From Candidatus Aenigmatarchaeota archaeon (lineage in GTDB: Archaea > Aenigmatarchaeota > Aenigmatarchaeia > GW2011-AR5), in NCBI GenBank assembly GCA_016198685.1, contig JACQID010000005.1, positions 1-17,965 on the forward strand: 17,965 nucleotides of DNA, in the 5' to 3' direction. Every line of letters begins with the position of its first letter. Within the stretch, counting starts at the first letter, position 1. Positions 1 through 17,965 of the stretch are shown here, in pieces. Position numbers and translations under genes: made by a program. The notes under the pieces are model-generated. The model was not told the origin of the DNA and ran no database searches. It worked only from the letters and a program-made list of their open reading frames with translations.

Positions 1-90
1 AGCGCACGTTTTCGCAAACACGGACGATCCGTCAATCAGGCGGTAATAGCGGTCGTTCCCTAAGCAGTAGTATCCTGAAGACGTGACCAT
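1..90. repeat. Terminal direct repeat, left copy (90 bp)
   Basis: agcgcacgtt...gacgtgaccat at 1-90 is identical to 17876-17965. Confidence 0.98.
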
Positions 91-207
91 ACCTGTCGGG
101 TTGGCGAAATCTGAGACAGCGTCTTTTATATCGTCAAGAAACGATCCGGAAGAGAATGACGGGATAATAAATAACATCAGAAGGATTGCATGGGATAAAA
201 ATCGCAT
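1..207 (-). CDS. 5' part of a secreted/surface protein gene running off the left end; continues at 17875 if the ends are joined
   Basis: ATG at 207 gives 69 open codons to base 1: MRFLSHAILLMLFIIPSFSSGSFLDDIKDAVSDFANPTGMVTSSGYYCLGNDRYYRLIDGSSVFAKTCA. It has a signal-peptide-like N-terminus and a TATA-like run at 226-236. Not in the ORF track. Confidence 0.8.
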   Translation of the reverse strand, partial: MRFLSHAILLMLFIIPSFSSGSFLDDIKDAVSDFANPTGMVTSSGYYCLGNDRYYRLIDGSSVFAKTCA

Positions 208-234
208 AATGATATTGCTTCGGAGTTATATATA

Positions 235-2466
235 TCATTTCCCGCTCTCAAGCCATGCTTTCCAGCGCTGGAAAATAACAGTGCTGTCCATTCCGCCTGT
301 TTCTTCAAGCACTTCCCTGCTTATAATATGGAACATGGAATTCGATTTAATGACGAATTCGGCTTCCATGATTTCAGGCATCCTGTTTTTGATGGCGAAA
401 TCCGTCAGGTATTGGAGTATATTGCCCCTAAGCTGTATATTCTCCCAGACAAGGTCCCATCGTCCTTTCCATTCGCGCGTGCGGGAAGCAATCTCATTCA
501 AAATAGCGCTTTCGCCAAGAACAAGAATTTCCGATGGCTTAAGAATATCGTCTTTAGCCGAGTACTCAAGAAGCTTGACAAAGCCTCCTTCCTCTTGTGG
601 ATCTGTCTTCCAGTGCTTCCTGACTTCCGTGACTTCAGTTAGGCGGCGGAAACTTGAAAGCCCGTCGGGGGACCGGAGTGCATTGGCTATAAGTATAAAA
701 TCCGTTGCCTTGAAACTCGTGGCAGGGACGCCCAAATCATTGACTACTCTATCAAATACTCCGTAAGCAGAATCGCCATGGATTGTTCCGGCTACTGTGT
801 TTGCCAAGGCGCCTATACGCATGGCTTCGTAAAGCGCTTTGGCTTCACTGCTTCTAACTTCGCCTATGATGAGAGAAGAGTCCCCAAGTCGCAATGCCGT
901 TCTCAATCCCTCTTCAGCAGGCATTTCAGTTTCAACTTGAGTGATGACGGATCTTGATTTTAATCGTTCTATATTGTAACCCAGGTCCCTCAATTGTTCA
1001 ATAGGCAATTCCAGCGTATCTTCAAGCGTAATTATTCTTATTTTTGGCATTATCTGGACCATTATCGCCCCAAGCAGGCTCGTTTTTCCGGAGCCTCTCG
1101 TTCCGCCGACAAGCATAGTTCTCGCTCCGTCAACAAGAAACCATATCAGGCCTGCAGAAAATGAATCGAGCATTTTCGTGCTGATGAATAGAGGGAAAGT
1201 CCATGGCTTTAGTCTATGACGACGGAAAGCAAATCCCAAGCCTTCGGGCGACAGGCTTCTGGTTATTGCAGTCACTCTTGCTCGCGCCTGCGGTAATTCT
1301 ATCTCCGTGTCAAGAACGGAATTCGCTTCATCCAAAGGGCGTCCGGAATGCAAACGGAAACGGGTGGCCCATGTCTCGGCATCTTCCATGCTGGGAACCA
1401 TATTGGTCTCGCATTCGCCGTAAATGCCGTGCACAATGTAAATGGGAGAAGAACCTATAGGTGAATTGACGGCTATATCCTGGACGCGTTCATCTTCGAG
1501 AAGCAATTCGAGAACGCCAAGCCCGGCAGTATAGCGTACAAGTATGTCCGCGAGCTTGTCTAATGAATCCTCAGCCACCGGTATTTTGTCGTTCCTTGAT
1601 ATATCTCTTAAGAGATCTGAGCTTATCCTTTTCATGTTTTCTCTTACGGTCTGCGGCTCGGTGAGCTCAATATCCCTTGGCTCATGCTTGCCGATATACT
1701 GTCTTGCCTTGTCAAGGATCGTGTATTCATTTTCATCAAGCTTGAATTCAGGCGGAATGAAATGATATAATCTCCTTACTTTTCCCGGGATATTGTATAT
1801 CTGTATATCCGTGTCGCCCAGCGAATAGCGTTCCAACAGTTCAGCATTGGCAGGCGGTGTAGCCACGTACCGCGTATACATGAAATTCGGTCTGATGCTC
1901 GGATGGAATATCTGCCTATAGAGTGACCGGTTCCTGTGTTCATGAAGGCGGTTGCGTACAAGTTGTATCATGCGGCAGGTCTCGAGGGCACTGGTCATGG
2001 GTGTCAGAGCATTGGCAATATAGTGCTCGGCGCATTTTCTTCGGGGTTCGTCCTCGTTCTTTTCTATCGCCGTGTTGGCGTGTCTTATTTCCCTCACTAG
2101 CCACTTGTAAGCCTCTATCGGGTCGTATTTTATCTGCGAGAAAACCTTCGTAAGAAAATCGTAGCGTTCCTGCGATTCGTATTCGCATTCAGGAATCACC
2201 ATGTTGCGTATCGTTATTATCCTATCGCGTATTATTTTTTCTATGACATTGGCGATTTCGAGAAGCATCCTGCTTTCATTGAAGTCGTACTCATGCTCGC
2301 GTCGTTCCACGAAAACGATCCTGACAAGTCTCTTTATTTCAAGAAGTTTGTCTATGGCGACAGACATAACAACGTCGTAATCCTCTATGCTTGGGCCGTA
2401 GATGCTGCCCATGCAGTTTATCCTTACTCGTTGAGACTCAGGATCATACTCGGATTCAAAAACCAT
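235..2466 (-). CDS. Type II/IV secretion system ATPase (VirB11/TadA/CpaF/ArlI-like) with long N-terminal extension, about 743 aa
   Basis: Walker A GGTRGSGKTS, Asp box ITLEDTLEL, Walker B LIIGEVR, His box GTIHGDS, and HxRPLDEANSVLD. Start moved from GTG 2583 to ATG 2466, which has a GAGGGA RBS. Confidence 0.93.
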   Translation of the reverse strand: MVFESEYDPESQRVRINCMGSIYGPSIEDYDVVMSVAIDKLLEIKRLVRIVFVERREHEYDFNESRMLLEIANVIEKIIRDRIITIRNMVIPECEYESQERYDFLTKVFSQIKYDPIEAYKWLVREIRHANTAIEKNEDEPRRKCAEHYIANALTPMTSALETCRMIQLVRNRLHEHRNRSLYRQIFHPSIRPNFMYTRYVATPPANAELLERYSLGDTDIQIYNIPGKVRRLYHFIPPEFKLDENEYTILDKARQYIGKHEPRDIELTEPQTVRENMKRISSDLLRDISRNDKIPVAEDSLDKLADILVRYTAGLGVLELLLEDERVQDIAVNSPIGSSPIYIVHGIYGECETNMVPSMEDAETWATRFRLHSGRPLDEANSVLDTEIELPQARARVTAITRSLSPEGLGFAFRRHRLKPWTFPLFISTKMLDSFSAGLIWFLVDGARTMLVGGTRGSGKTSLLGAIMVQIMPKIRIITLEDTLELPIEQLRDLGYNIERLKSRSVITQVETEMPAEEGLRTALRLGDSSLIIGEVRSSEAKALYEAMRIGALANTVAGTIHGDSAYGVFDRVVNDLGVPATSFKATDFILIANALRSPDGLSSFRRLTEVTEVRKHWKTDPQEEGGFVKLLEYSAKDDILKPSEILVLGESAILNEIASRTREWKGRWDLVWENIQLRGNILQYLTDFAIKNRMPEIMEAEFVIKSNSMFHIISREVLEETGGMDSTVIFQRWKAWLESGK

Positions 2467-2625
2467 TAGCTCCCTCAATGCGTCAATATAACATCGGAAT
2501 TTTATAAGCAAATTGCATATAGCTAACGGGTTTAATATCGTTATTTTATTACAGAAATATAGATATAATTCTGTTCTTTGCACGGGCTACTATAACTTAA
2601 TAAGCAATCAGCGCTAGTTATTCAT

Positions 2626-2985
2626 GTGCAGGACGACAAAACCAACATGATTCTACAGGAGCTCGTCAGAAGGACGAATGACAGTATAAGGCGTTTGCAC
2701 GAGCTTGAAGGCAAGATGGAGAACGTCGAAGAAAGGAGTTCTGCGCTTGAAAGCACAAGCATATCTAAGCTCAAATCGCTTAATGACAAAATCACGGAGA
2801 TGGAGAGCCGTATAAAGGATATGGATGCTAATCTTGCCCGGCTGGACAATACTATAGAAAAAATAAGCAAGCAGATGAACAAGATGGCGAGGCAAAGCGA
2901 TGTTAAGGAGCTTGAACGGATGTTCGAGCTGCTCAGTCCTCTTAGGGTAGAACGGATGCCTCGTCCAGAAAGGATCACCCAGTAA
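2626..2985 (+). CDS. Coiled-coil hypothetical protein (119 aa)
   Basis: Heptad-like E/K/L-rich helix throughout; divergent from the ATPase. Alternative ATG at 2647. Confidence 0.8.
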   Translation: MQDDKTNMILQELVRRTNDSIRRLHELEGKMENVEERSSALESTSISKLKSLNDKITEMESRIKDMDANLARLDNTIEKISKQMNKMARQSDVKELERMFELLSPLRVERMPRPERITQ

Positions 2986-2994
2986 CCCAAGATA

Positions 2995-3040
2995 TTTATA
3001 TAGACGGAAGCAATATTGGTATATTAAACCCATCTGGTGA
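2995..3040 (+). promoter_or_regulatory. TATA box and RBS for the 3045 gene
   Basis: TTTATATA at 2995-3002; GGTGA at 3036-3040 just before ATG 3045. Confidence 0.6.
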
Positions 3041-3044
3041 CAAA

Positions 3045-3683
3045 ATGTTTTTCAGGAAAAAGAAAGAATCAAATAAGGTTGTTCCCTCTGAAGAGATAGA
3101 AAGCCTGATTTCTCAGGGCATGAGTGACAAAGACATAATAAAGAAGCTAAAGTCCGAAGGTTATTCTTACGAAAGCATAGAGAATGCTATGCTCAAAGCA
3201 GTGAAGGTAGGCGTTGATGACAGTGGTGTTGGGCAGGATTCTTTCGATCCTGCCTTAGCTGCACCTGTTATGCAGCAGCCGCAGGAACCTCCTGCCATAG
3301 ATGATTTTTCAGACATGGACATGAAAAATGCCGAGGAGCTCTCTCCTGAGCAGATAGTTGAGGAGCTCATAGAAGGCGTTGTTGAGAGCAAATGGAAGCG
3401 GTTTGATGAGGAAATCGAGCGCATGAATATGGAAATTAATTCTATCAAGGAGTCAAGCAAGAACGCAAGACCTCCTGAAGGCTCTTCTGACGGCTCGCAA
3501 TATGATGAGAAGATAAACGCAATATCTGCCCAGGTAGAAGATATCTCAACGCGCGTGGGCGGTCTGGAAAAAGCATTCAAGCAGTTCCTGCCTTCACTCA
3601 CAAGGAATATAGAAAGCCTTTCTGCCATAATTCACGAGATGAAAGGCAAACAGCAAAGCGAGCCTAAGCCTTATTATCAATAA
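3045..3683 (+). CDS. Hypothetical protein: small N-terminal helical domain, P/Q-rich linker, C-terminal coiled coil (212 aa)
   Basis: QGMSDKDIIKKLKSEGYSYESIENAM, then PVMQQPQEPP, then EELIEGVVESKWKRF...LEKAFKQFLPSL. Clear RBS and TATA. Confidence 0.85.
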   Translation: MFFRKKKESNKVVPSEEIESLISQGMSDKDIIKKLKSEGYSYESIENAMLKAVKVGVDDSGVGQDSFDPALAAPVMQQPQEPPAIDDFSDMDMKNAEELSPEQIVEELIEGVVESKWKRFDEEIERMNMEINSIKESSKNARPPEGSSDGSQYDEKINAISAQVEDISTRVGGLEKAFKQFLPSLTRNIESLSAIIHEMKGKQQSEPKPYYQ

Positions 3684-3714
3684 TTCTTTCTGTTTTGGGA
3701 ATATTCAAAAATGC

Positions 3715-4206
3715 TTAGTGATGTGCTGCTGCAGCGACTTTCGCACCGCCTGCTATGAACATCACGGCGACTATCATGACAACGACCATAAATATTATTG
3801 ACATCACATCATTGGTTATCAGTTCCAGCCCGCCGAACACTGAGAAGAACACTATGATACCAATGCCAAGTCCTGCCGTCAGCAGCAGCTTGCTGTCTGC
3901 AAGCTTGCTTATGTCATATCCGGACATGCCGACAAACATCATGGTTATCAGCACACCTGCAAGCACCATGACCATAGTGCCGAATAATGATTTGAAAAAC
4001 ATGCCAAGGGCCACGCCACCAAATCCTATGACAAAGAACGCAACAACCATTGATACGACGCCTATGATCTTCTGGTCATCGCCAAGGGCCTTGGTTTTGA
4101 GCAACAAAGCGTAAAGCACTGCAAATGTCAATATCCATGGCAAAAGGAACCCAAAGAACCCTAATTGGTCAAGGTTTCTCACGAAAAGCTCGAAAGGCGA
4201 TGCCAT
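3715..4206 (-). CDS. Multi-pass membrane protein, paralog 4 of tandem array (163 aa)
   Basis: About 5 hydrophobic segments; GFFGFLLPWILTFAVLYALLLKTK motif shared with the upstream paralogs. Confidence 0.88.
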   Translation of the reverse strand: MASPFELFVRNLDQLGFFGFLLPWILTFAVLYALLLKTKALGDDQKIIGVVSMVVAFFVIGFGGVALGMFFKSLFGTMVMVLAGVLITMMFVGMSGYDISKLADSKLLLTAGLGIGIIVFFSVFGGLELITNDVMSIIFMVVVMIVAVMFIAGGAKVAAAAHH

Positions 4207-4210
4207 TGGC

Positions 4211-4708
4211 TCACTTCTTTTCCTCAGCTGTCACAAAATAGACCGCGGCAAGGAGTATAAGGCCCCAGAATATCATGGTCGCGGTCTGGCTATCTATCCT
4301 GAGCCCAGGTATATTGCCTCCGGACGAGAAGAACAATGCCGCGCCTACTACAAGAACGATCAGGAGTATTATCCAGTTTCTCATGGAGCCATTAGCGCCC
4401 ATAAGATTCTGGCCTACCATCTGAAGGAACATGACAAGCACAAGTATTCCTACGGCAAGCACGACAAAGTTGCCGAGCAGGCTCATGAAGAATGCTGCCA
4501 TCTGCGGGCCTGCTGCCGCAGTCACGAAGAATGCAAATATGAGTGAAAGCGCAATATTCGCCTTGGCTTTCAGATCCCCGAAAACGCTAAGCTTGTCAAG
4601 CAGGCCAAACGTTATCACGAACGTGAAGACCCACGGAAGCAGGAAGTTGAAGAAATCCGCGCCTAGCATTTGCGCAGGATTTATACCGAACTGGAAAAGT
4701 ACCATCAT
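4211..4708 (-). CDS. Multi-pass membrane protein, paralog 3 (165 aa)
   Basis: DFFNFLLPWVFTF...AFFVTAAAGPQMAAFF; AGGTGA RBS upstream. Confidence 0.9.
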   Translation of the reverse strand: MMVLFQFGINPAQMLGADFFNFLLPWVFTFVITFGLLDKLSVFGDLKAKANIALSLIFAFFVTAAAGPQMAAFFMSLLGNFVVLAVGILVLVMFLQMVGQNLMGANGSMRNWIILLIVLVVGAALFFSSGGNIPGLRIDSQTATMIFWGLILLAAVYFVTAEEKK

Positions 4709-4715
4709 GAGTCAC

Positions 4716-5291
4716 CTAATGAGCGCCGTGGCCTCCATCAGCAGGAGGATGTGCTGCGCCTCCTCCGCCCCCGCCGCTTGGCGCGGCAGGCTTCTTTTCT
4801 TCGGCTTTGTGTTGAGTCACATAAATCACAGCGCCGCCGAGTATGACTGCCCAGAATATCAAGGTAGCTGTCTGCTGGTCAAGGCGGAATCCGGGTATGT
4901 GGCCGCCTGATGCAAGGAACATCGCTACTGCAACTACAATTGTAACCCAGAACAATAAAGTTCCGGGAAGCTGCTCAAGACCCTTGCCCGTGACCAATGT
5001 CACGAACATAGCAAGTATCAAAACTCCTGTTATATAGACCGCTGCGTTTCCGAAGAATTCTATGAAGAATGCTGCCATCTGCGGTCCAGCTGATGCTGTC
5101 ACAAAGAATGCAAAAACAAACGCTAAAGCAAGGCTTATCTTTGGCCTCAGGGCATCGCTGAATATCTTAAGGTTCATGAGGAGTACATATGAGATGACAA
5201 ACGTCAGAACCCAGGGAAGCAAGAAATTGAAGAAATCCGACCCAAAAACTTGAGTAGGATTGAAAGCAAGCTGAAACAATACCATGAACAT
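4716..5291 (-). CDS. Multi-pass membrane protein, paralog 2, with Gly/His-rich tail (191 aa)
   Basis: DFFNFLLPWVLTF...AFFVTASAGPQMAAFF; tail KPAAPSGGGGGGAAHPPADGGHGAH. TATA-like AATATATAAG at about 5323-5333 on the minus strand. Confidence 0.9.
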   Translation of the reverse strand: MFMVLFQLAFNPTQVFGSDFFNFLLPWVLTFVISYVLLMNLKIFSDALRPKISLALAFVFAFFVTASAGPQMAAFFIEFFGNAAVYITGVLILAMFVTLVTGKGLEQLPGTLLFWVTIVVAVAMFLASGGHIPGFRLDQQTATLIFWAVILGGAVIYVTQHKAEEKKPAAPSGGGGGGAAHPPADGGHGAH

Positions 5292-5342
5292 CCCTTCTTT
5301 TCTTACTTATTTGCGCCTCAACCTTATATATTTGCTTTTTGC

Positions 5343-5792
5343 CTATGTTCCGGCGCGTTTGCCTTGCATATGCACCACGTAGAATATCATTGATATAACT
5401 ATGATACCTATAATCCAGAGAATATTGTCTGTGGACAGATATTTTGGCAGGAACGGGGTTATTTTATCCCATAGAATTGCCAATAATATCAGGGAAATCG
5501 CAAGCCCCATGCCCGTTGTGGTCATGTCATGCTCTCCAAGCTTGCCGGTAAGGTCCTTGAAGAAGAATATTCCAAAGAATATGATTATGAGTATGACAGC
5601 AACCGGCAGAAATTCCTGCAGGCCGATTACAAGAGGCTCATAGAGAGACGCGAACAATGCCATTGCCAAAGCAAGCACGGCATTGACATTCCTTTCCGCT
5701 ATCTTGGTCTTGTTAAGCAGGAAGAAAATGATTGCAAAAACAAACAGGAACGCTGCGACGAAGGGCGCCATCTGCGGGTCAATGAATGCCAT
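5343..5792 (-). CDS. Multi-pass membrane protein, divergent paralog 1 (149 aa)
   Basis: PFVAAFLFVFAIIFFLLNKTKIAERNVNAVLALAMALF aligns by eye with the array motif. Start reset to ATG 5792 (GCGGTG RBS; 4 nt after the upstream stop). Confidence 0.82.
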   Translation of the reverse strand: MAFIDPQMAPFVAAFLFVFAIIFFLLNKTKIAERNVNAVLALAMALFASLYEPLVIGLQEFLPVAVILIIIFFGIFFFKDLTGKLGEHDMTTTGMGLAISLILLAILWDKITPFLPKYLSTDNILWIIGIIVISMIFYVVHMQGKRAGT

Positions 5793-5796
5793 AAAA

Positions 5797-6525
5797 TTAC
5801 ACCGCCACTGGAGAAGGCGTTGGGTCATAGCGCTTCTGTTGTTCAATCAAATGATGCAAGCCCTGCATGTAAGAAAGCTGCTGCTGGAGCGACTGCGCGA
5901 GGCGGTCATTATGCTCGGTCCTTGCCTCGTTGTACTGCGTATTCAACGCAGCTATCGCCTTCGATAATATCGTTTTCTGCTCGTTGTACGTTCTTGCCCC
6001 CCGCAAAAGCTCGATCGTTATTCCTGCCTCGCCTGCTGCCATTGACGAGGCTACTGCCGCGCCAGGCATGTGTGCCGGACCTCCACCGCCGCCCATGGGC
6101 GGCGCAGCTCCGGGTCTTCCTCTGACTACCCAGAAATGGCTTATAATGTAGGCCAGTAATCCCCAGACTATAATCAGGATAAGGAAATATGCTTGGGCAA
6201 TATAAGCGAATATTTTGAAGTAGCCACCGAAGATAATGAATAAATATAATGTTATATCTGCCAGAAGTATCATTTTTGGTTGATCTACTATCTTTGCAGC
6301 TACAAGATTAACTATGATTATAATAAACGCCGTGGGCACAAAGAAGAACATGACAAGATCATTGATGATATTCCCCGTAAACGGAGCTCCTGGGTATTCT
6401 GTCATTTTGAGGAAGTCTCGGAACAGAAGCTCGCCGATATCTATGTTCTGAAATCCTTGTGCAAAAGCGGCTGCAGGCATAAGCGCCAGTAGCAATGCGA
6501 GCAGCAGAACACGATTCATCTCCAT
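5797..6525 (-). CDS. Membrane protein with signal peptide, 3-4 TM segments, Gly/Pro linker and C-terminal coiled coil
   Basis: MEMNRVLLLALLLALMPAAAFAQ signal; hydrophobic core; RPGAAPPMGGGGGPAHMPG; helical tail. Start reset to ATG 6525 (or 6519) to avoid overlap with the GT4 gene. Confidence 0.82.
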   Translation of the reverse strand: MEMNRVLLLALLLALMPAAAFAQGFQNIDIGELLFRDFLKMTEYPGAPFTGNIINDLVMFFFVPTAFIIIIVNLVAAKIVDQPKMILLADITLYLFIIFGGYFKIFAYIAQAYFLILIIVWGLLAYIISHFWVVRGRPGAAPPMGGGGGPAHMPGAAVASSMAAGEAGITIELLRGARTYNEQKTILSKAIAALNTQYNEARTEHNDRLAQSLQQQLSYMQGLHHLIEQQKRYDPTPSPVAV

Positions 6526-6566
6526 ATTATGGTTTGCTGGGATAAAAAGATAACTCAAAAGGTACA

Positions 6567-7808
6567 CTAGCCTTTGAGCCATTGATGCAATTTTTGCAGG
6601 GCTTCCGGCATAGCAAGATTTCGGGGAATCGTGGGCACAACAGGTATTTCTCGATATAATTTTTCATAAATACGATATAATAGTCCTGTGATAACCCTGC
6701 TATCGTACATTTCTTCTATATATTGGCGGCCGATTTCTGCTCTTTGTTTTTCTTGTTCATAATTCCTATTCACGATATCAATTGCTTCTTGTATTTGTTT
6801 CGTGTTCCTTGGAGACACCCCTATAGCAACATGAGGGTCTACATAAACTTCCTTCATTCCTCCTTCATTTGAAACTATGATAGGAGTTCCCAACGACAAT
6901 GCTTCTAGTGCGCTCATGCAGAAAGTTTCATTTTTTGTATCTGACGGCATTACGAACATATCAGCTGCTTTATATATAGAAGGCAGGCCTTTTGGATCAG
7001 TTGATGGTTCTATTTTGCCAAGCATTATGAGGTTGTCTAAAACTCCCCTATCAGCGAAAATCTGGACAAGTCTTTCCTGATTTTGAGGATTATATATCAT
7101 CCCTGCATGCATTAACTTTAGTTGTTCTCCCGATTTTACAAGTTCAGCAACGGCCTCACCTAGTTCAAATATGCCTTTATCTTCTTCAAGCCTGCCTGTA
7201 GTAAGAACGAGGCGGGATCCATCAGGTGCATATTTCAATCTTATATCTTGTGCCCTTCGCAAGACATCATGATCTCTATTATATATACCATAATCAGTTG
7301 AATTAGGAAGTGTCAATACTTTATTGCTATATTTTCCATTGTCTAAACCTCTTATGAGGTTGGAGACATATTCTGAAGGCGCGGTAATTAAATCTGCATC
7401 ATTGAATAATTCTCTGTCCATAGGATCATACAGGGAATCCATTCCATGCATTGTATGTATGTGCTTTCCGCCAGTTTTTTTGTTTCTTTTTGCAAGCTCA
7501 ATTATCCGGCGTCCTCTAGTATGAGTATGGAAAAGACGAGGCTTTGATTCATATGTTAATGATGTAATGAGATGATCCAACTGTTCATATCTTTCAGTTT
7601 GATCGCCATGTCCGTTTCTTTTAAAAACAGTATAACCAGCCCAATCAAAGGGCTTATCTTCTGTGTAAAGATTGAGACCAGTTATCATTTTCATCTCGTC
7701 GTTATGTTGGCCGTAGTGAGACAAATGTTTCCAGTGCTGAAGCGGGACTGTATCTACTCCAGAAGCGATCTCGCTGCCAGGGCCAAACTTAGATATCCAG
7801 ACATCCAT
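6567..7808 (-). CDS. Glycosyltransferase family 4 (GT-B fold), 413 aa
   Basis: IHTMHG, GRLEEDKG and ETFCMSALEALSLGTPIIVSNEGG (EX7E). ATG 7808 overlaps the upstream TGA (TGATG) and has an AGGTG RBS. Confidence 0.92.
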   Translation of the reverse strand: MDVWISKFGPGSEIASGVDTVPLQHWKHLSHYGQHNDEMKMITGLNLYTEDKPFDWAGYTVFKRNGHGDQTERYEQLDHLITSLTYESKPRLFHTHTRGRRIIELAKRNKKTGGKHIHTMHGMDSLYDPMDRELFNDADLITAPSEYVSNLIRGLDNGKYSNKVLTLPNSTDYGIYNRDHDVLRRAQDIRLKYAPDGSRLVLTTGRLEEDKGIFELGEAVAELVKSGEQLKLMHAGMIYNPQNQERLVQIFADRGVLDNLIMLGKIEPSTDPKGLPSIYKAADMFVMPSDTKNETFCMSALEALSLGTPIIVSNEGGMKEVYVDPHVAIGVSPRNTKQIQEAIDIVNRNYEQEKQRAEIGRQYIEEMYDSRVITGLLYRIYEKLYREIPVVPTIPRNLAMPEALQKLHQWLKG

Positions 7809-8365
7809 CAATAAACACCTATGGCCCTCTTTAATCCGCCAACTACTGCTTTCAGGGAGTCAAGATCTGGCAACGGAGGAACTATGACGCCAGAAGCTGA
7901 TGGAGCAGGCGAAGGAGTTCCGGGTTGTCCTCCATAAGGATATGTTCTGGATGGCCCAGCACCTGCATAGGGAGTGTAGCCATATGGGTATCCTCCATAC
8001 GGATAACCAGCGTATGGGTAGTAGCTTGGATATCCTCCGTATGGCGAATCACCATACGGATTGTATGGATTCGGATGTGGCATGCCATGATGCTTATAAG
8101 GCGCCGCCTCATGCAGCACTGTCATGTGTCCGGGTGCATGTGGTCCTTTTGCAGGGTCAAAAGGATCAAGAAAGTATGGCCAAATTATTTTCAACTGTGG
8201 CCTGTTAAGGGGGCTGCCTGGGGATATCCAAGGCGTTCCTCCGAAGTTTCCATAATGAGGATCATCACTATCTTTAGAAGCGACATATCCCTCCTGATTT
8301 ACGGCCGCTCTCAGATGCGGCGTAATCACGAGTCCGGGTTGAAACTCAGGGACAGCTACCATCAT
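7808..8365 (-). CDS. Pro/Tyr/Gly-rich low-complexity protein (185 aa)
   Basis: GGAGG RBS; start and stop both overlap the neighbouring genes; PYNPYGDSPYGGYPSYYPYAGYPYGGYPYGYTPYAG tract. Confidence 0.8.
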   Translation of the reverse strand: MMVAVPEFQPGLVITPHLRAAVNQEGYVASKDSDDPHYGNFGGTPWISPGSPLNRPQLKIIWPYFLDPFDPAKGPHAPGHMTVLHEAAPYKHHGMPHPNPYNPYGDSPYGGYPSYYPYAGYPYGGYPYGYTPYAGAGPSRTYPYGGQPGTPSPAPSASGVIVPPLPDLDSLKAVVGGLKRAIGVY

Positions 8366-8940
8366 TCATCTCCTCCTGATGTGTATGCATAGTGCATGGT
8401 TTCAAGCGGGTCTGCCTTTGAGGCGATCGCCGCCGCTGCGTAATCCTTGGCAAAATCAATGAGCGGAGCCATTCCATCATTCTTGTGGTTCTGCACAAAA
8501 TTCCTGAATATCTTTGCGTCCTCGGATTCAGGATGAGTATAAGACAAAACGGCCCTGTTGAACAGAACGTTAAGGCCGACTATTGATTCATCATCCATCT
8601 TGTCAGGATCCTGGCTGGTTATTTCATAGTCAGATATCCTGTCATGATCATAGCCTATTGAGTGGGCGTATTCGTGCCTGCCTATGAGGCTTCTGTATAT
8701 TTCCGGTATCGGCTTTCCGCCAAGCATCTCGGCTATCCAGGTCTTGCCTGTCGCTTTGTCATAGCTGCCTACAGGGAAGTCGAGAAGGCTTTCCGAGCTG
8801 TCTCCGAAGTAGACTCCCGGGTGCTTCTTGTTATGTTCTGCATCGTACTCGGTTATCATTGCCCTTCTCTGTGGACCGCGCATCAAAGGCAGAAGTTCCG
8901 CGTCAAACGGGCTTATCATAGGTCTTTTGTATGGCATCAT
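8362..8940 (-). CDS. Putative zincin metallopeptidase, no signal peptide (192 aa)
   Basis: HEYAHSIGYDH matches HEXXHXXGXXH; upstream GSYDKATGKTWI segment. Confidence 0.75.
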   Translation of the reverse strand: MMPYKRPMISPFDAELLPLMRGPQRRAMITEYDAEHNKKHPGVYFGDSSESLLDFPVGSYDKATGKTWIAEMLGGKPIPEIYRSLIGRHEYAHSIGYDHDRISDYEITSQDPDKMDDESIVGLNVLFNRAVLSYTHPESEDAKIFRNFVQNHKNDGMAPLIDFAKDYAAAAIASKADPLETMHYAYTSGGDE

Positions 8941-8946
8941 TTTTCA

Positions 8947-8990
8947 TCACTATTCAGTTACTATAGTCTTTGCAATATATAAAGATTTCG
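8947..8990 (-). promoter_or_regulatory. BRE-TATA promoter with candidate palindromic operator
   Basis: Minus-strand CGAAAT (8990-8985) then TTTATATA (8983-8976); TCACTATTCAGTTA at 8947-8960. Confidence 0.6.
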
Positions 8991-9011
8991 CTACTATAGA
9001 GTAGTTAAATA

Positions 9012-9506
9012 TTATGCTCCTAAATCCTTGTTTTTCTGCAGTTTAGTACCCTTTTCGCGGTGGTCGCGCAATTTTTTGACTGCAGCTTTTCCGCCCCCGA
9101 TAACTGCGGCTCCTGCGGTGACTATAGGCGCAATGTTGTAGAAGTCCATTCTCTTTTGGGACGGAAATACATCCTGCGGCAATTGCGCTACTGCGGTATT
9201 GGCTTTTTCCCAAACATCATAAAGTCCCGCGCTTCCGATAGCTCCTACTGTAAAAGCCCCTATGTTCTCATACCATTTGAGATCCCTGCCGACAAGCGCT
9301 TTGAGTCCCTGCCTTGCGGTTTCACCCATTCCATAGGAAAGAACTGCCATTGGCGTCACGCTGGCAAGATAATTATCAGGCATATCACGTATCCCAATCC
9401 ATGCAAGGCCGGATGCTGCAAGTGTCAATGCAGGGGTATAGACCGCAGGCTTTCTAATCAATTCGAGCGCATTCTTCGCTGTTTTTCCGATGTAATTCAT
9501 CATCAT
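9012..9506 (-). CDS. Gly/Ala-rich putative membrane protein (164 aa)
   Basis: Hydrophobic small-residue segments IGAFTVGAIGSAGL and IVTAGAAVIGGG; basic C-terminus. Confidence 0.75.
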   Translation of the reverse strand: MMMNYIGKTAKNALELIRKPAVYTPALTLAASGLAWIGIRDMPDNYLASVTPMAVLSYGMGETARQGLKALVGRDLKWYENIGAFTVGAIGSAGLYDVWEKANTAVAQLPQDVFPSQKRMDFYNIAPIVTAGAAVIGGGKAAVKKLRDHREKGTKLQKNKDLGA

Positions 9507-10147: not shown

Positions 10148-10161
10148 CAAATATATGGTAT

Positions 10162-10385: not shown

Positions 10386-11207
10386 ATGGTCGAAGTAATA
10401 TCCTTATCGTTCATTGAAAGAATCCTAACATTCGTATTCGTATTTTTTGCAACGCTTGTAATAGGCAATGCAGTTCATACTTTTATTATCAGAGAACTTC
10501 AGATCAGGCACATCACGTTCTCAGGATATTATTTCGTTGCAAAGATCCTGCTCTACGGCATATACGCCCTCGGCTTCTTCTACGGGTTCACGGTGGTGCT
10601 CAATTTCAACGTCGCCGAATTCGCGGCAAGCTTCGGCCTCATAAGCCTTGCGATAGCCTTCTCGGCGCAGCAGACCATACAAAATTACATCGCAGGCATC
10701 ATAATAATGGTGGACAGGCCGTTCCGCGAGCGCGATTACGTCGAGCACGCAGGGACGGTATGCAAGGTCATAGACATAGGCCTCCGCAGGACGCGGATGC
10801 GTTCGCTTGACGGCAGGATATTCATCGTCCCGAATTCCGCTTTCGTGACGGGCACGGTAATCAACTACACCGAAGGCGAATATATAAGATGCGTCACTAC
10901 TCTTCCGATTTCGCATGACTCTGAACTTGAAAAAGCCATGGCAATCATAATGGAAGCATGCGTTGAAAACCACGAAATAGTGCCTAGAGTTTCCAAGAAA
11001 ATGTCGGCTCTTGAGGCGCTTCTTACCATACCAAAAGACATGAAGAAGCTTGAGCCGAAGATTTTCATCAAAGAGATAAACAAGGACAGAGTCGTCTTGG
11101 AATTGTGGTTCTGGACAGACGGCATTCGAAGAAGGGAAATCGTAATCTCGCGTGTTCTTGAGGAAGTGAAGAAGCGATTTGAAAAGAACGGCATAAAATT
11201 CGGATGA
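10386..11207 (+). CDS. mscS: Small-conductance mechanosensitive channel (MscS family)
   Basis: Three N-terminal TM segments, then AFSAQQTIQNYIAGIIIMVDRPFRERDYVE...VIDIGLRRTRMRSLDGRIFIVPNS. Confidence 0.93.
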   Translation: MVEVISLSFIERILTFVFVFFATLVIGNAVHTFIIRELQIRHITFSGYYFVAKILLYGIYALGFFYGFTVVLNFNVAEFAASFGLISLAIAFSAQQTIQNYIAGIIIMVDRPFRERDYVEHAGTVCKVIDIGLRRTRMRSLDGRIFIVPNSAFVTGTVINYTEGEYIRCVTTLPISHDSELEKAMAIIMEACVENHEIVPRVSKKMSALEALLTIPKDMKKLEPKIFIKEINKDRVVLELWFWTDGIRRREIVISRVLEEVKKRFEKNGIKFG

Positions 11208-11395: not shown

Positions 11396-12481
11396 ATGAA
11401 AGCTGCGATAGTGGCTCTGTTCCTCATTCACGTGTCCTTTGCCTCTGTTATAACGCCGTTTTCTTCTCCGGATAACATGGAAAAAATTGTTGGTGGATTC
11501 CTGCAGGAAAGCGAATCGCCGTTGGTAGCCGTCTATACGTTTACAAATCCTGCCATAGCATGGGCGCTTGCAGGCAAAAATGCGACAATACTGGTCGAGA
11601 AGGCGCCCGCAGGAGGGATTCCTGATCGGTCGATCCTTTGCTTCCTGCAAGACAGCGGCTCGAGAGTTCTCCTTTATGACGGTCCCTATAGATTCATGCA
11701 CGCAAAGTATGCTGTTTCAGGCAACAGATCTTTAATATTATCAGAGAACTTTGGATCTTTCAAGGCGCGCGGCTGGGGAGCAATAATCGAAGATGAGCAT
11801 ATAGCATCCAATCTTACGTCCATGTTCAATGAAGATTCCATGCATGCCGTGCCATTCGTATGCCAAATGAATTATACGTTCCATGAAAGTTCTGTTGCGC
11901 GAGAAACGATGCCTTCATATCATGGCAATGCGACGATAGTCGCAGCGCCAGGAGCTACGCAAGATATTGTGTCCTTTCTTTCATCTGCAAAAGAAAGGCT
12001 ATGGATACAGCAGGCTTACATATACAGGAAATGGAGTCATGGCCAGAATCCGTTCATAGAAGCAATAGAATCCTCTCCTGCCAAAAAGAAAATAATGATG
12101 GACGGCTCATGGTTCAACATTGACAAGAACGACAGGAATAGCAATTATTATACGGATCAATACATGAAATCACTGGGAATTGCATCAAAAATTTCGGATT
12201 TCGAAATTCATAATAAAGGCGTTGTTGCCGATAGTACAGCACTGGTCTCAAGCATAAACTGGAACGAGAATTCGCCCGAAAATAATCGTGAAGTGGGTGT
12301 CCTAGTAACCGGCGAAGCTGCAAAGTATTTTGCCGCGCGTTTCGAGGAAGACTGGCACAAAACGGAAATTCCGTTTTCGGCTTTAGCCGTTTTTATATTC
12401 TCACTTGGCATAGTTAAGCTATGGATTATTCTCCGAAATCGAAAAAAATACTCGGCAAAGCTTCGATCGGCGACAGAGTAG
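11396..12481 (+). CDS. Phospholipase D superfamily protein, secreted with C-terminal membrane anchor
   Basis: Signal peptide MKAAIVALFLIHVSFA; motifs HAKYAVSG...SENF and HNKGVVAD...SSINWN; C-terminal TM followed by RNRKK. Confidence 0.88.
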   Translation: MKAAIVALFLIHVSFASVITPFSSPDNMEKIVGGFLQESESPLVAVYTFTNPAIAWALAGKNATILVEKAPAGGIPDRSILCFLQDSGSRVLLYDGPYRFMHAKYAVSGNRSLILSENFGSFKARGWGAIIEDEHIASNLTSMFNEDSMHAVPFVCQMNYTFHESSVARETMPSYHGNATIVAAPGATQDIVSFLSSAKERLWIQQAYIYRKWSHGQNPFIEAIESSPAKKKIMMDGSWFNIDKNDRNSNYYTDQYMKSLGIASKISDFEIHNKGVVADSTALVSSINWNENSPENNREVGVLVTGEAAKYFAARFEEDWHKTEIPFSALAVFIFSLGIVKLWIILRNRKKYSAKLRSATE

Positions 12482-13740
12482 TCGTGCATACTGACGGAAA
12501 AAAATACGAAGGGCTTCTTATGCCTAAGTATTCGGAAAATCCGGATACCGTGACCCTGAAGTTAGACAGCGGCTATACTATAGGGCTAAAGCCGGATAGA
12601 ATAACGGTAGTGGAGAAGTCTGGCCGCGGCAAGCCACGGTCTTCTGTCAAGCGGTCTCATGATTCTTCCAAGCCGACAATAACTATACTCCATACCGGAG
12701 GCACTATAGCCTCAAAGATAGATTACAAAACCGGAGCGGCTTATCCTGCTATCTCGCCGGAAGAATTGAGCGATGCTGTTCCTGAATTAAGAGAAATTGC
12801 GAACTACAACGCAAAAGTCGTGTTTCAGATGTATTCAGGAGACATGGAGCCTGACCACTGGAAAATACTTGCGGAAAAAGTTTACGATGAGGCAAGAAAT
12901 GGCGTTGACGGCATCATAATCTTGCACGGAACCGATACCATGGCCTATTCGGCAGCTGCGATAGCTTTCATGGTCCAAAAGCTTCCAATACCTGTGCTTT
13001 TCGTAGGCTCCCAGCGTTCTTCAGACAGGGGAAGCGCAGACGGCCCTATGAATATAACGTGCGCGTCAAAGTTCATAGTCAAGAGTGATTTTTCAGGCGT
13101 TGCCATCTGCATGCACGGGACGTCAAGCGATGATTATTGTCTGATCAATCCGGCAGTCAACGTCAAAAAAATGCATACTTCCAGGCGGGACACGTTCCGG
13201 CCTATAGACGTCAAGCCTTATGCAAAGGTCTGGCAGGACGGTAAAATTGAGATGTTAAGAAATGATTATATTGCGAAAGACATGAAGAAAGAACCTGTTT
13301 TAAGGAATGGCATTGAGAGAAAAGTTGCCATAATCAAAATCAGGCCGGGCATAACGCACAAGGAACTCGAATTCTACAAGGATTACAGAGGCATAATAAT
13401 TGAAGGAACGGGGTTGGGCAATGCGCCTGTGACTGTTCTTGACAAATACACCTCTCATCATGCCAAGCTCCTTGATACTATGAAAAAACTGTCAAAGAAA
13501 GGCGTGAAAATGTTCATGGTTTCTCAATGCCCCTACGGCAAGGTAAACATGAACGTTTATGCTTATGGCAGGATGGTGCAGGATGCCGGCATCGTTCCAT
13601 TGTCCATGACATCGGAAGCGGCCTATACCAAGCTTATCTGGGCACTTGGCAACTTTCCAAAGCAGGTCGAAAAGATAATGCTTGAGAACTTTTGCGGTGA
13701 AATTATCGAAAATATAAAGGCCGATACGTTCCTTATTTAG
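12421..13740 (+). CDS. gatD: Glu-tRNA(Gln) amidotransferase subunit D
   Basis: N-terminal GDRV...YEGLLMP domain; asparaginase motifs HTGGTIAS, HGTDTM, GSQRSSDR and KMHTSRRDTF. Confidence 0.96.
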   Translation: MDYSPKSKKILGKASIGDRVVVHTDGKKYEGLLMPKYSENPDTVTLKLDSGYTIGLKPDRITVVEKSGRGKPRSSVKRSHDSSKPTITILHTGGTIASKIDYKTGAAYPAISPEELSDAVPELREIANYNAKVVFQMYSGDMEPDHWKILAEKVYDEARNGVDGIIILHGTDTMAYSAAAIAFMVQKLPIPVLFVGSQRSSDRGSADGPMNITCASKFIVKSDFSGVAICMHGTSSDDYCLINPAVNVKKMHTSRRDTFRPIDVKPYAKVWQDGKIEMLRNDYIAKDMKKEPVLRNGIERKVAIIKIRPGITHKELEFYKDYRGIIIEGTGLGNAPVTVLDKYTSHHAKLLDTMKKLSKKGVKMFMVSQCPYGKVNMNVYAYGRMVQDAGIVPLSMTSEAAYTKLIWALGNFPKQVEKIMLENFCGEIIENIKADTFLI

Positions 13741-13841
13741 TGAACAGAAGAATTATTCCCCTAAAACGACCGTATTCGTTTACCTGGGGTATAATCCATG
13801 AAAACCTTATTTAGTGAACAGAAGAATTATTCCCCTAAAAC
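13731..13841. repeat. Two identical 37-bp direct repeats separated by 37 bp
   Basis: CCTTATTTAGTGAACAGAAGAATTATTCCCCTAAAAC at 13731-13767 and 13805-13841. Confidence 0.97.
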
Positions 13842-14267
13842 TATCATGGTGTTCGTTCTTTCCACTCCTGGGAAATTTTGTATATAGCTCGTTACGAACC
13901 TATCCATCTCGTTCACGTCGCGGGCAGTGACTTTTATTATCATGTCGTTTCCGCCTGTAATGACATCGGCAAGCTGCACATTCTCCTTTTCCCGGCACTG
14001 TCTGGCTATTTCATGCTGCGTTATGCGGTTCTTTTTGAGTTCCTCGTAATTGAATACAATGCCTATGTAGGCCGTTATGGTTTTTCCGATCTTCTGCTCG
14101 TTGAGTTTTACCGTGTATTGCTCTATCACTCCGTCTTCCTCCATCTTCTTGATTCGGTTATATACGGTGGTTGTAGGCATATTGAGCTTCTTTGAGAGCG
14201 CTTGCATGCTAAGGCGGGCATTTCTTTTGAGAACGCTTAGAATATTTTCATCTTTTTTGTCAATCAT
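13827..14267 (-). CDS. Lrp/AsnC family transcriptional regulator
   Basis: IDKKDENILSVLKRNARLSMQALSKKLNMPTTTVYNRIKKMEEDGVI HTH; C-terminal RAM domain ITGGNDMIIKV...PGVERTNTMIVL. ATG 14267 preferred over TTG 14285 (TATA at about 14291-14298). Confidence 0.95.
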   Translation of the reverse strand: MIDKKDENILSVLKRNARLSMQALSKKLNMPTTTVYNRIKKMEEDGVIEQYTVKLNEQKIGKTITAYIGIVFNYEELKKNRITQHEIARQCREKENVQLADVITGGNDMIIKVTARDVNEMDRFVTSYIQNFPGVERTNTMIVLGE

Positions 14268-14397
14268 ACGGAATGTATATTCCAAAAATTATTTAAAAAG
14301 CACTTTAGAATGCCATAACTATTCAGGAAAATCGCAGGATTTTTTTATCTTCCATAAGACTATTATTAAAATGGATCTAAAATATTTATGCAATTTT

Positions 14398-14613
14398 ATG
14401 CAAGAATTCTCGCTTTTCGTACATGAAGACGAGCTTAAAGAAGCGCTTCATGCTGTAAGAAAAACAATAGATGATATGCCTTATCAAAAGGGTCTCTTCT
14501 TCAAATTGCTTCTGCAATTCATGGAACGCCATATAGACTGGAGATTTGCAGAAGAAATGGAAAATGCATTCATTGAAGGCATGGGGAAGCGCAAAATTGT
14601 GGTTAGCGTTTGA
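14398..14613 (+). CDS. Small hypothetical protein (71 aa; 80 aa if started at 14371)
   Basis: MQEFSLFVHEDELKEALHAVRKTIDDMPYQKGLFFKLLLQFMERHIDWRFAEEMENAFIEGMGKRKIVVSV; fills the Lrp-gatE gap. Confidence 0.6.
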   Translation: MQEFSLFVHEDELKEALHAVRKTIDDMPYQKGLFFKLLLQFMERHIDWRFAEEMENAFIEGMGKRKIVVSV

Positions 14614-14650
14614 AAGATAAAGATTTTAACTCCCTTGTATAGGTTGTTTC

Positions 14651-16438
14651 ATGGCTTATGGAAAACATATCAATATAGGGCTTGAAATCCATCAGCAACT
14701 TAACACTTCCAACAAGCTTTTCTGTTCTTGCCCCATTCTAAAGAGTGAAAACTTCCCTTTCTCAACCACTAGAAGAATCAGGGCAGTTGCTGGTGAAGGC
14801 GGTAAAATAGATCCTGCAGCTCTTTACGAAATGACGCGCGGCAGGGAATTCATTTATAGATCCGATAATATTAGCAGTTGTTTAATTGAATTGGATGAGG
14901 AGCCACCCAAGCAGATAAATGAAGATGCGCTTTATATCACGCTTCAGGTTTGCAAGCTTCTCTCTTCCTCGTCGGTAGAAGAAGTGCATGTTATGCGAAA
15001 GACCGTGGCTGATGGGTCGGCTGTATCCGGTTTCCAGCGCACGGCTCTTGTAGGCGTAGGCGGGCAGGTTAAGACCTCCTTTGGCAAGATAGGGATACAA
15101 ACTGTATGCCTGGAGGAAGATTCTTCTGTAGATATGCATACGGGCAGGCCGGAATATCGTATAGATCGTTTAGGCGTGCCACTTGTCGAGATAGCGACTG
15201 CGCCTGACATGCACTCGCCTGAAGAAACAATGGCTGCCGCAGAGAAAATAGGTACATTGCTTCGCAGCTTGAATGTCCGCAGGGGGATAGGCAGCATACG
15301 CCAAGATATCAACGTTTCGATAGAAGGCGGAGAGAGGATTGAGATAAAGGGATTTCAGGAACTTGATAGGATTGCTGAAGCTGTAAATAACGAAGTCTTG
15401 CGGCAGGTCGCTCTTCTTGAGGTACGCGATGAACTCCGCAAAAGGGGCGTCAGGGACGCGCCTGAAAAAGTAATTGACGTAACACATGTTTTCCGGAATA
15501 CCGAATCCTTTGTCAGAAAATCTCTGGCAGACGGCAAGGTTCTTGCATCGGTATTGCATGGGTTTGGCGGTCTTATGAAAAAGGAACTCGGCGACAGAAC
15601 CCTGGGCAAGGAACTTTCCGGTTACGCTGCAGCGTACGGCTATGGAATAACGCATTCAGACGAAGACATGGAAAAATACAAGCTCACTGAAGAGTTCATG
15701 GAACTAAGAAAACTTCTCAATGCGGGGCAGCGTGATATTGTTTTTATAGTGGCGGGCAAGGGTCCGGAAAAAGGCATTACGGCAGTGATTGAGCGCGCAC
15801 GGTACTGTCTTATCGGAATACCTAAGGAAACGCGTGTCGCAGACGGCGCAGGGTCAAGATATACGCGTCCATTGCCCGGCTCAGAAAGAATGTATCCGGA
15901 AACCGACGTGCCTGTTCATACCATAAGCGGAATCAAAGTCTCGGTTCCCAAAACAATTGAAGAGCGCACGGCGGAATTAAAAAAATTGATGCCGGAAGAC
16001 ATGGCTAATCAGTTGGCGCGTTCGGAAAAATACTATTTATACGAAAACCTGACAAAAAAATTCAACGTAGACGCTGTGCTTGTTGCTACCACCCTGCTTT
16101 CAACGGTTAAGGATCTGAAGAGGCGGGGTCTTGATGTTGACAAAATAAGTGAAGATGAATTAGAAAAAGTCTTTGCTTATGCGGCTTCTGGGAGGATGCC
16201 CAAGAGCGCGGTGCCCACGGCTCTGGAAGGGATAGCCTCAGGCAAAACGGCTGAAGAGATCATCCAGTCTCTGGAGCCTGTGAATGAAAAGAAGCTTCGT
16301 TCTATAGTTAATGAAGCGGTCGATGCCAATGCAGGCCAGAAGGAAAGCGTTATTATGGGCATAGTGATGGCCAAAGTGCGCGGCCGGGCTGACGGGAGCA
16401 TGGTTGCGAAACTATTAAGGGAAGCCATGCGAAAGTAA
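14651..16438 (+). CDS. gatE: Glu-tRNA(Gln) amidotransferase subunit E
   Basis: GLEIHQQL, DEEPP, MRKTVADGSAVSGFQRT, RLGVPLVEIAT, GSIRQDINVSI, RIEIKG, RPLPGSERMYPETD; C-terminal MGIVMAKVRGRADG. Confidence 0.96.
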   Translation: MAYGKHINIGLEIHQQLNTSNKLFCSCPILKSENFPFSTTRRIRAVAGEGGKIDPAALYEMTRGREFIYRSDNISSCLIELDEEPPKQINEDALYITLQVCKLLSSSSVEEVHVMRKTVADGSAVSGFQRTALVGVGGQVKTSFGKIGIQTVCLEEDSSVDMHTGRPEYRIDRLGVPLVEIATAPDMHSPEETMAAAEKIGTLLRSLNVRRGIGSIRQDINVSIEGGERIEIKGFQELDRIAEAVNNEVLRQVALLEVRDELRKRGVRDAPEKVIDVTHVFRNTESFVRKSLADGKVLASVLHGFGGLMKKELGDRTLGKELSGYAAAYGYGITHSDEDMEKYKLTEEFMELRKLLNAGQRDIVFIVAGKGPEKGITAVIERARYCLIGIPKETRVADGAGSRYTRPLPGSERMYPETDVPVHTISGIKVSVPKTIEERTAELKKLMPEDMANQLARSEKYYLYENLTKKFNVDAVLVATTLLSTVKDLKRRGLDVDKISEDELEKVFAYAASGRMPKSAVPTALEGIASGKTAEEIIQSLEPVNEKKLRSIVNEAVDANAGQKESVIMGIVMAKVRGRADGSMVAKLLREAMRK

Positions 16439-16449
16439 TACTAGGTAAT

Positions 16450-16827
16450 ATGGTTGACATACTCGGCTACACTATAGGCATAAGCCTGGCGCTTCTTGCA
16501 AGCCAGGCGGTTTCGGCGCTTCTTGCATTTATCGCAGTTGTAATTTCTGATAATTATATTGGCCATAATATTGAATTAAAAAGAGCTTTAGGTCTTTCGG
16601 TCATTTCATTTTTCATCGTGCCTCTGATTATTCCATATTTGGGCTTGAATTATCCTTATCTCAATCTTTACTTCCCGCTTATATCATGGATAATACTTGG
16701 AGAAATAATACTCAATAATGACTTTGGAACGAAACTCAAGATCCTTGGCGTTGCGTTCTTCGTATACTACATACTGAATATAATAGTTCAGCCGATCCTT
16801 CTGGATTACTTGCGATTTCTGAGTTGA
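16450..16827 (+). CDS. Small multi-pass membrane protein (125 aa)
   Basis: About 4 hydrophobic segments; 11 nt downstream of gatE on the same strand. Confidence 0.8.
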   Translation: MVDILGYTIGISLALLASQAVSALLAFIAVVISDNYIGHNIELKRALGLSVISFFIVPLIIPYLGLNYPYLNLYFPLISWIILGEIILNNDFGTKLKILGVAFFVYYILNIIVQPILLDYLRFLS

Positions 16828-16871
16828 ACGTTGAAAAATACAAATGGGAGCACTAGAAGGTTACATTTTCT

Positions 16872-17965
16872 CTATTCAATATCGGTAGCTATTGAGTATA
16901 CTGCAGTGGACCTAAATCCTTTCCAGTATGCCAAGTTAAATTCATGAATAGTCATGACATGATAATATTTCTGTCCGCGGGCAGATATCTCTATAAGGAA
17001 AAGTCCATTATCGCCCGTAACACTTATGGCGCCAAATGGATTGGGTTTCAACGTATGGCCGGTGGCGGTTGTTAAAGAATGAACAGGCTGATTTGGCAAG
17101 ACAAGCTCGCCATTGTTGTTGGTAGTTCCTGATAAGACGAGGGACGATGAGGATATTTTTTTGTTCGACGATTGCCATACAATAACTATTGCGTCGGCCA
17201 AAGGTGCCCCGTTCAAATCGTTTATTCTGATAATATTATTTTCAGGGGTGTCAAACAGATATTCTCCATAATATCCTCGTCGATAATCTTTTGTGGAGGC
17301 CAAGGCTGTTAATATATATGATGGCGGTTTTATCCCGGTTTCTGCAGATATTCCGATGTCATCTTGACCGCCCGTTACCTCGGGGTTTTTCAAATTAAGA
17401 CGTTCTCCAGTGATGGCGTTATCGGCAGGCAATACGTTGGCATCGTACATATGTGCGAATCCAAGTTGATGTGCCCATTCGTGCACAAGGCTTGGCTGAA
17501 TTCTCATTGCCCAATATGCGATTTTGTTTGGGCATGTGTTTTCACACCATTCATCAGTTTCAAACCCCCATCTGCCATCCCATAGAATGTCGTGGGGTGC
17601 ATGGGTTGCACCTCTTGGTAGTATACCATTGGGTTCAACCACGATGTTGTCTATGCGCATGGACATGCCAGATTCAACTATCATTTCATTTAGTCTATCC
17701 GCGTGCACTTGTATCCAGTCCTCAAACGAAGAGATTCCTTTCAAATGGACGGCACGATTGAAGGAATCGTAAACATCCTGCTCCACATGAATTCTCATAG
17801 ACATTGCGTTTGTGGCATCTTCTATGTGGTTGTTGGTATTGTGTTGCAGTCGTTTGTTGCCGTGTTGCAACCGTAAGCGCACGTTTTCGCAAACACGGAC
17901 GATCCGTCAATCAGGCGGTAATAGCGGTCGTTCCCTAAGCAGTAGTATCCTGAAGACGTGACCAT
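16872..17965 (-). pseudogene. Secreted zincin metallopeptidase gene, 3' part, frameshifted at about 17825 (true lesion or sequence error)
   Basis: The frame entering from the right end reads MVTSSGYYCLGNDRYYRLIDGSSVFAKTCAYGCNTATNDCNTIPTTT then TAG (17824-17822). The overlapping frame continues IEDATNAMSMRIHV...VHEWAHQLGFAH (HEXXHXXGXXH)...GAPLADAIVIVWQ...GTTNNNG to the stop at 16872. Confidence 0.7.
17876..17965. repeat. Terminal direct repeat, right copy (90 bp)
   Basis: Identical to 1-90. Confidence 0.98.

Follow-up and report, generated by a model that had tools for sequence, protein, structure and literature searches.

Matching ends of a 17,965-bp Aenigmatarchaeota contig very probably reflect a direct repeat in a linear chromosome and not a circle

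The contig described here raises the question of whether a DPANN archaeon keeps an essential translation enzyme on a small circle. The window, i.e. the whole stretch of 17,965 bp that was analysed, is contig C8 of an eight-contig, 935-kb Aenigmatarchaeota genome. Bases 1-90 are exactly those of 17876-17965, with a spacing of 17875, as a preliminary description had reported. The same description had a gene that starts at 207 continue in frame across the join, and on the joined circle it does: the open reading frame runs on the minus strand from the ATG at 207 to the stop at 17822, encodes 86 aa with a hydrophobic N-terminus and reads ...YGCNTATNDCNTIPTTT ahead of that stop. The terminal overlap and the open frame over the join are the features in favor of an autonomous minichromosome, a stable 17,875-bp circular replicon with gatDE, in which case the chromosome would pass from contig C3 through one repeat copy directly to contig C6. 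A minichromosome of this kind, with genes for translation, would be remarkable in a DPANN archaeon, and showing its absence is useful.

The gene content of C8 is that of a chromosome region. A FlaI/TadA-type secretion (type IV filament) ATPase of 743 aa is encoded at 235-2466 on the minus strand, followed by a series of short minus-strand genes without annotation (3715-9506), in the midst of which lies a GT4 glycosyltransferase gene (6567-7811, minus). On the plus strand are genes for a MscS-type mechanosensitive channel (10386-11207), a PLD-like domain protein (11396-12481), GatD (12421-13740) and GatE (14651-16438), and a Lrp/AsnC-type regulator lies on the minus strand at 13827-14285. GatD (460.5 bits against a cut-off of 310) and GatE (621.3 bits against 456) both score above the curated NCBIfam equivalog cut-offs and show the Pfam domains GatD_N, Asparaginase, GatB_N and GatB_Yqey. 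The two subunits of the archaeal GatDE Glu-tRNA(Gln) amidotransferase are thus carried by the contig, in agreement with the earlier reading. Each gene is present once in the genome, and for GatE there is elsewhere only a GatB-like paralog, on C2.

The ATPase has a match in all 30 relatives searched (28 of them at E below 1e-150) and adjoins the gene of its T2SSF-type platform partner where this was examined. In the genome under study the platform gene is on C3, and the two genes are adjacent in the relatives G001 and G002; joining C3 to C8 therefore restores a functional pair, whereas the circle would part the ATPase from its platform gene. The FlaI/TadA/VirB11-type ATPase is also the only match to a mobility-related superfamily in the window. 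Its assignment as a conjugation gene was rejected, the best matches being FlaI and TadA, all under the curated cut-offs.

The features of an independent replicon were sought in the window. Scans of its open reading frames against Pfam, NCBIfam and PHROGs returned no replication initiator, integrase, transposase or relaxase and no viral genes, and among the frames scanned nothing matched Rep, Orc1/Cdc6 or primase. The earlier statement that the contig has no recognizable replication or mobility gene therefore holds for these scans. The only Orc1/Cdc6 (Cdc6_C) match of the genome is on C1, and an origin used by an unfamiliar initiator is conceivable on C8. No tRNA genes that might serve as integration sites were found. 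The tetranucleotide composition of the contig is that of the chromosome: 67% of equal-sized chunks from the other contigs are farther from the genome mean. The composition and the lack of an initiator or other replication gene both argue against the minichromosome.

The matching ends are not private to C8. The 90-mer, present in the window at 1-90 and at 17876-17965, recurs as the terminal 90 bases of C3 and as the opening 90 of C6, and in the genome it occurs at these four contig ends only. Since C3 and C6 hold it as well, the matching ends of C8 are no evidence of self-closure, and this sharing counts against a minichromosome. The shared sequence extends further on each side. At the ends of C3 and C8 exactly 141 bases are identical (17825-17965 in the window), and upstream of them the sequences are unrelated. 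On the other side, C6 and C8 open with exactly 141 bases in common (1-141 in both), with the first mismatch at 142 and the similarity gone by about 160. Taken together, 17825-17965 and 91-141 define an exact repeat of 192 bp, which two contig ends enter (those of C3 and C8) and two contig starts leave (those of C6 and C8). The genome holds no copies of the repeat beyond those at the four contig ends.

The length of 141 bases recurs in independent contig pairs of the assembly: the ends of C1 and C2 share 141 bases, and the overlap from C5 to C2 is also 141. The ends of C8 are thus shared over the same k-sized length as those at the other branch points. As judged from the contig sequences, the pattern is that of an exact 192-bp repeat acting as a two-in/two-out branch in a graph built at k = 141. 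Both this k and the assembler are inferred; MEGAHIT is commonly run with '--k-max 141'. In such a de Bruijn graph each contig would end at a branching 141-mer, which explains why C3 and C8 share their ends and C6 and C8 their starts: the former two would end with the initial 141 bases of the repeat, and its final 141 would open the latter two. Between these two 141-mers the overlap is 2 x 141 - 192 = 90 bases, as observed at the termini, and C8 would consequently seem to close on itself. The connecting unitig of 192 bp would have been too short to be kept and was probably lost.

Taken by itself, the graph fits a linear order of the three contigs as well as it fits C3-C6 plus a circle. It also permits a path from C8 to C8, as expected if at least two copies of the segment with one repeat followed each other head to tail from C3 to C6. 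Such a tandem amplification is highly improbable, given that the block occurs once in the relatives and that there is no hint of extra copies. A mixed population is another arrangement that a de Bruijn graph cannot tell from the linear one: the chromosome would read C3-repeat-C8-repeat-C6 and some cells would pop out a non-replicating 17.9-kb circle by homologous recombination, for which the 192-bp direct repeats, exact copies at a distance of 17.9 kb, might serve as substrate. This is very unlikely. Nothing points to the excised circle and the graph signature is fully explained without it. Moreover, the segment has the only gatD and gatE and no Orc1/Cdc6 gene, so that cells losing it should not survive. 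The broader proposition, that part of the population holds the 17.9-kb segment as an excised or amplified circle with the cell's only gatDE, is very unlikely as well; if true, an essential region of a DPANN archaeon would exist in an extrachromosomal state driven by recombination.

The nature of the repeat supports the explanation that the earlier description ranked as most likely, namely that two paralogous genes for surface proteins, with 90 bp or more in common, gave rise to an assembly loop. The repeat copies are the 5' module of two secreted-protein genes, identical over 192 bp, and the four contig ends meet there. The shared module lies directly after the signal peptide and comprises a small Cys-rich domain and the beginning of a Thr-rich linker. 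The first gene has its 5' end, with the signal peptide and the small Cys-rich module, at 1-207 on the minus strand; on the C3-C8 join it runs on into C3 and encodes a Cys- and Thr-rich protein of 559 aa with weak Ig-like matches. The second is a short paralog (about 87 aa), whose 3' end is at 17822-17965 on the minus strand and whose start, with a different signal peptide, lies where C6 begins; the paralog terminates in TTT followed by the stop.

Comparison with relatives separates the possible joints. In G003, a same-genus relative (JAGVVY010000030.1, Candidatus Aenigmatarchaeota, 79,389 bp), the end of C3, C8 and the start of C6 are colinear on one contig with a single repeat copy. The modelled C3-C8 joint aligns to it in one 2,648-bp HSP at 85% identity, over the repeat and with unique sequence on both sides, and for the C8-C6 joint the two flanks map at a distance of 11 bp. 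On the other hand, the C3-C6 joint and the C8-C8 joint of the circle each break at the repeat edge, with a jump of about 20 kb. The genes at the end of C3 directly adjoin the ATPase of C8 in G001, G002, G007 and G008 as well, and 11 relatives or more have the ATPase 7-17 kb from gatD, the longest of the contigs concerned measuring 918 kb. The right-hand joint, C8-C6, has the support of one relative, G003; other genes come after gatE in G001 and G007. A block embedded in the chromosome of relatives had been named beforehand as a finding against the circle, and it is found in five relatives. The excised circle and the minichromosome of the earlier description are thus left without support. With the block chromosomal in all relatives examined and its own joints at odds with G003, the minichromosome is the least probable of the readings, and extremely so.

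The second repeat copy lies in a stretch of 1,288 bp without counterpart in G003, which extends from 16826 to the end of the window and on to position 238 of C6. The stretch also holds a minus-strand gene (16872-17804) for a 310-aa HExxH (HEWAH) protein without family match, which matches only the C-terminal half of secreted CARDB-containing proteins of 590-710 aa in two family relatives. The second copy is probably recent and would have arrived with about 1.3 kb inserted or rearranged downstream of gatE. On this reading the HExxH gene is a truncated, peptidase-like one, and at its head stands a duplicate of the 5' module of the neighboring gene.

Bridging contigs were searched by an exact look-up of the ATPase protein in other public assemblies, which returned only two short Logan contigs (SRR12113430 and SRR12113384) with an identical ATPase. 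Both break off within the repeat, 123 bases beyond the gene, and are therefore uninformative on linkage. A 45-base core of the repeat had no match in the JGI metagenome contigs scanned.

On the sequence data, C8 is very probably a linear chromosome stretch between C3 and C6 with the 192-bp direct repeat, left unresolved by short-read assembly, at both borders, and its circle a false one. From topology and synteny we infer the physical linkage of C3 to C8 and of C8 to C6 in the source population. The order would be C3, repeat, C8, repeat, C6, and the three contigs can be placed in one stretch of about 494 kb.

Three known systems are instructive for comparison. Complete circular plasmids and viral genomes are recognized by their terminal overlap, and C8 resembles them in its exact ends and in the open reading frame over the join. 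However, the overlap of a real circle is private to its contig, whereas that of C8 is common to two other contigs, and C8 carries core chromosomal genes in conserved synteny and no replication gene. Secondary replicons with essential genes, e.g. the haloarchaeal minichromosomes, are far larger and carry origins and Orc1/Cdc6 or Rep genes of their own. Housekeeping genes, gatDE among them, would likewise sit on a small circle in such a system, but C8 has no Orc1/Cdc6 or Rep gene and the relatives hold the block in the main chromosome. The closest likeness is to the repeat-induced cycle of short-read de Bruijn graphs, in which a segment between two repeats longer than k acquires the same sequence at both ends. 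C8 differs from the usual case in that its overlap (90 bp) is neither k nor k-1, its repeat (192 bp) being slightly longer than k, and in that the bin lacks the connecting unitig, so that the cause escapes notice if the contig is read alone. For a repeat that exceeds k by little, the overlap can differ from k in length, and a binned contig with matching ends should be compared with the other contigs of its bin before it is called circular.

The preliminary description had presented contig C8, the whole window, as an apparent circle with housekeeping genes, and each of its observations was recovered. The 90-bp terminal repeat is exact (bases 1-90 equal 17876-17965 of the 17,965-base window). 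On the joined circle, an open reading frame of 86 residues runs in frame across the join on the minus strand, from the ATG at 207 to a stop at 17822, with the C-terminal reading ...YGCNTATNDCNTIPTTT. The genes gatD (12421-13740; 460.5 bits, cut-off 310) and gatE (14651-16438; 621.3 bits, cut-off 456) both exceed their NCBIfam equivalog cut-offs, and Pfam agrees. Scans of the window with Pfam, NCBIfam and PHROGs gave no replication, integration or transposition gene, and a search for tRNA genes found none. Where gatD and an Lrp gene converge at their ends, there is an exact 37-bp direct repeat (13731-13767 and 13805-13841; spacing 74 bp).

The genome comprises 934,889 bases in eight contigs and is 93.7% complete, C8 being represented entirely by the window. 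The 90-mer occurs at exactly four sites, all on one strand: at either terminus of C8, as the final 90 bases of C3 and as the initial 90 of C6. The last 141 bases of C3 and C8 are exactly identical and the sequences upstream of them are unrelated; the first 141 bases of C6 and C8 are likewise exactly identical, with a mismatch at 142 and divergence by approximately 160. The exact repeat (R) is therefore 51 + 90 + 51 = 192 bp long. Two ends lead into it (C3 and the C8 end) and two lead out (C6 and the C8 start), a topology that allows either the linear order C3-R-C8-R-C6 or C3-R-C6 together with a C8 circle.

All four possible joints were modelled and each was aligned to G003, a same-genus genome and the nearest relative to have a long contig (JAGVVY010000030.1, Candidatus Aenigmatarchaeota archaeon RIFCSPHIGHO2_02_FULL_49_46, 79,389 bp). 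In one direction, this contig matches, in turn, the final 15 kb of C3, C8 1-16825 and C6 from 239 onward. The C3-C8 joint gives a single 2,648-bp HSP of 85% identity that continues across the repeat into unique sequence on either side. Across the C8-C6 joint the flanks lie 11 bp apart in G003, from which the intervening 1,288 bp are absent. The C3-C6 joint and the circular C8-C8 joint both break at the repeat edge with a jump of about 20 kb. G003 has one repeat copy, at the C3-C8 position.

Four relatives besides G003 support the left joint: the C3-end genes adjoin the C8 secretion ATPase gene in G001 and G002, of the same genus, and translated comparison shows the same arrangement in G007 and G008, of the same family. 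For the right joint, G003 is the sole supporting relative; in G001 and G007 gatE is followed by other genes. In at least 11 of the 30 relatives searched, one contig, of up to 918 kb, carries both the ATPase gene and gatD, at a distance of 7-17 kb. The relatives thus carry the block embedded, which speaks against an excised circle or a minichromosome, two of the readings proposed earlier. The favoured one, an assembly loop between paralogous surface-protein genes, holds. The apparent circle is most probably an assembly artefact and C8 a piece of the chromosome that lies between C3 and C6. A minority of excised C8 circles in the population, or a tandem amplification of C8, is conceivable but improbable, and nothing calls for either. 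Logan contigs from two runs, with an identical ATPase, both stop inside the repeat, and the core of the repeat had zero matches in the metagenome contigs scanned for it.

The ATPase, of the FlaI/TadA type (743 aa; 235-2466, minus strand), is seemingly an orphan within the window. The contig break parts it from its usual partner, a T2SSF-type platform protein of 653 aa encoded across the break on C3 (L024:3716-5677 = C3:129863-131824, minus strand). The two genes are directly adjacent in G001 and G002. Here and in G003 they are separated by three genes for secreted proteins: the 559-aa Cys- and Thr-rich junction protein, a 1,355-aa CARDB/M64-like/beta-helix protein and one of 219 aa. In the relative G018, the ATPase ortholog lies within a single 1,292-aa open reading frame (G018:C4:526533-530267), where the query matches as two segments, residues 39-524 and 520-779, with about 1.5 kb between them; this frame appears to contain an in-frame insertion of about 500 aa resembling an intein.

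Archaea generally rely on GatDE for Gln-tRNA. Both gatD and gatE are single-copy in the genome, and the sole Orc1/Cdc6 match is on C1. With the platform gene on C3, a C8 circle would therefore be origin-less, carry essential genes and split the ATPase-platform pair. The tetranucleotide profile of C8 is nearer the genome mean than are those of 67% of the chunks of equal size taken from the other contigs. A contig of a Candidatus Dojkabacteria bacterium (L032, JAFCCB010000004.1) encodes a protein with 37% identity to GatD across residues 3-439, a span that apparently takes in the GatD-specific N-terminal part; the gene is of archaeal type, in the bin of a CPR bacterium.

On the linear model, the left repeat copy is the 5' part of the gene for the 559-aa secreted protein, which starts at window position 207 with its own signal peptide and extends into C3, where its C-terminal body is encoded. 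The right copy supplies the 5' portion of a short paralogous gene, whose product has about 87 aa; this gene opens at the beginning of C6, where a different signal peptide is encoded, and stops at window position 17822. Its Cys-rich frame ends with TTT before the stop. A 310-aa HExxH protein (16872-17804, minus strand) starts 17 nt downstream in another frame, and the two (window 16872-17965, minus strand, plus L025:91-238, the C6 start) may together be a chimeric gene that has been frameshifted or truncated. The HExxH domain is covered by no family in Pfam or NCBIfam. The protein has zero matches in the four same-genus relatives and matches only the C-terminal half of secreted proteins of 590-710 aa encoded by single genes in G008 (L018:1480-3603) and G017 (L019:1492-3273); these proteins combine a signal peptide and Thr-rich linkers with a small Cys-rich domain and a CARDB-like region. 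The 1.3 kb absent from G003 thus appears to be what remains of such a gene, recently acquired or rearranged, with a copy of the neighbour gene's 5' module at its head. The two repeat copies are identical at 192/192 positions, whereas the module is about 91-94% identical between this genome and G003; this contrast points to a probable recent duplication or gene conversion as the source of the second copy.

The length of 141 bases recurs at unrelated branch points: C1 and C2 have exactly 141 terminal bases in common, and the end of C5 and the start of C2 overlap by exactly 141. C7 begins with 90 bases that are identical to C2:399-488. The C1/C2, C5/C2 and C7/C2 ends are other unresolved graph nodes, from which further joins and repeats could be derived likewise. 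The 141-base pattern at the contig ends reads as the signature of a de Bruijn graph built with k = 141, a value very commonly set in MEGAHIT. Every contig would then end at a branching k-mer, and the branching 141-mers at the two ends of the 192-bp repeat would overlap by 2 x 141 - 192 = 90 bases; this overlap is the apparent "terminal repeat". The 192-bp connecting unitig would fall below contig-length or binning filters and so presumably be lost. Ambiguous cycles created in this manner by repeats are well known (Recycler, PMC5408804).
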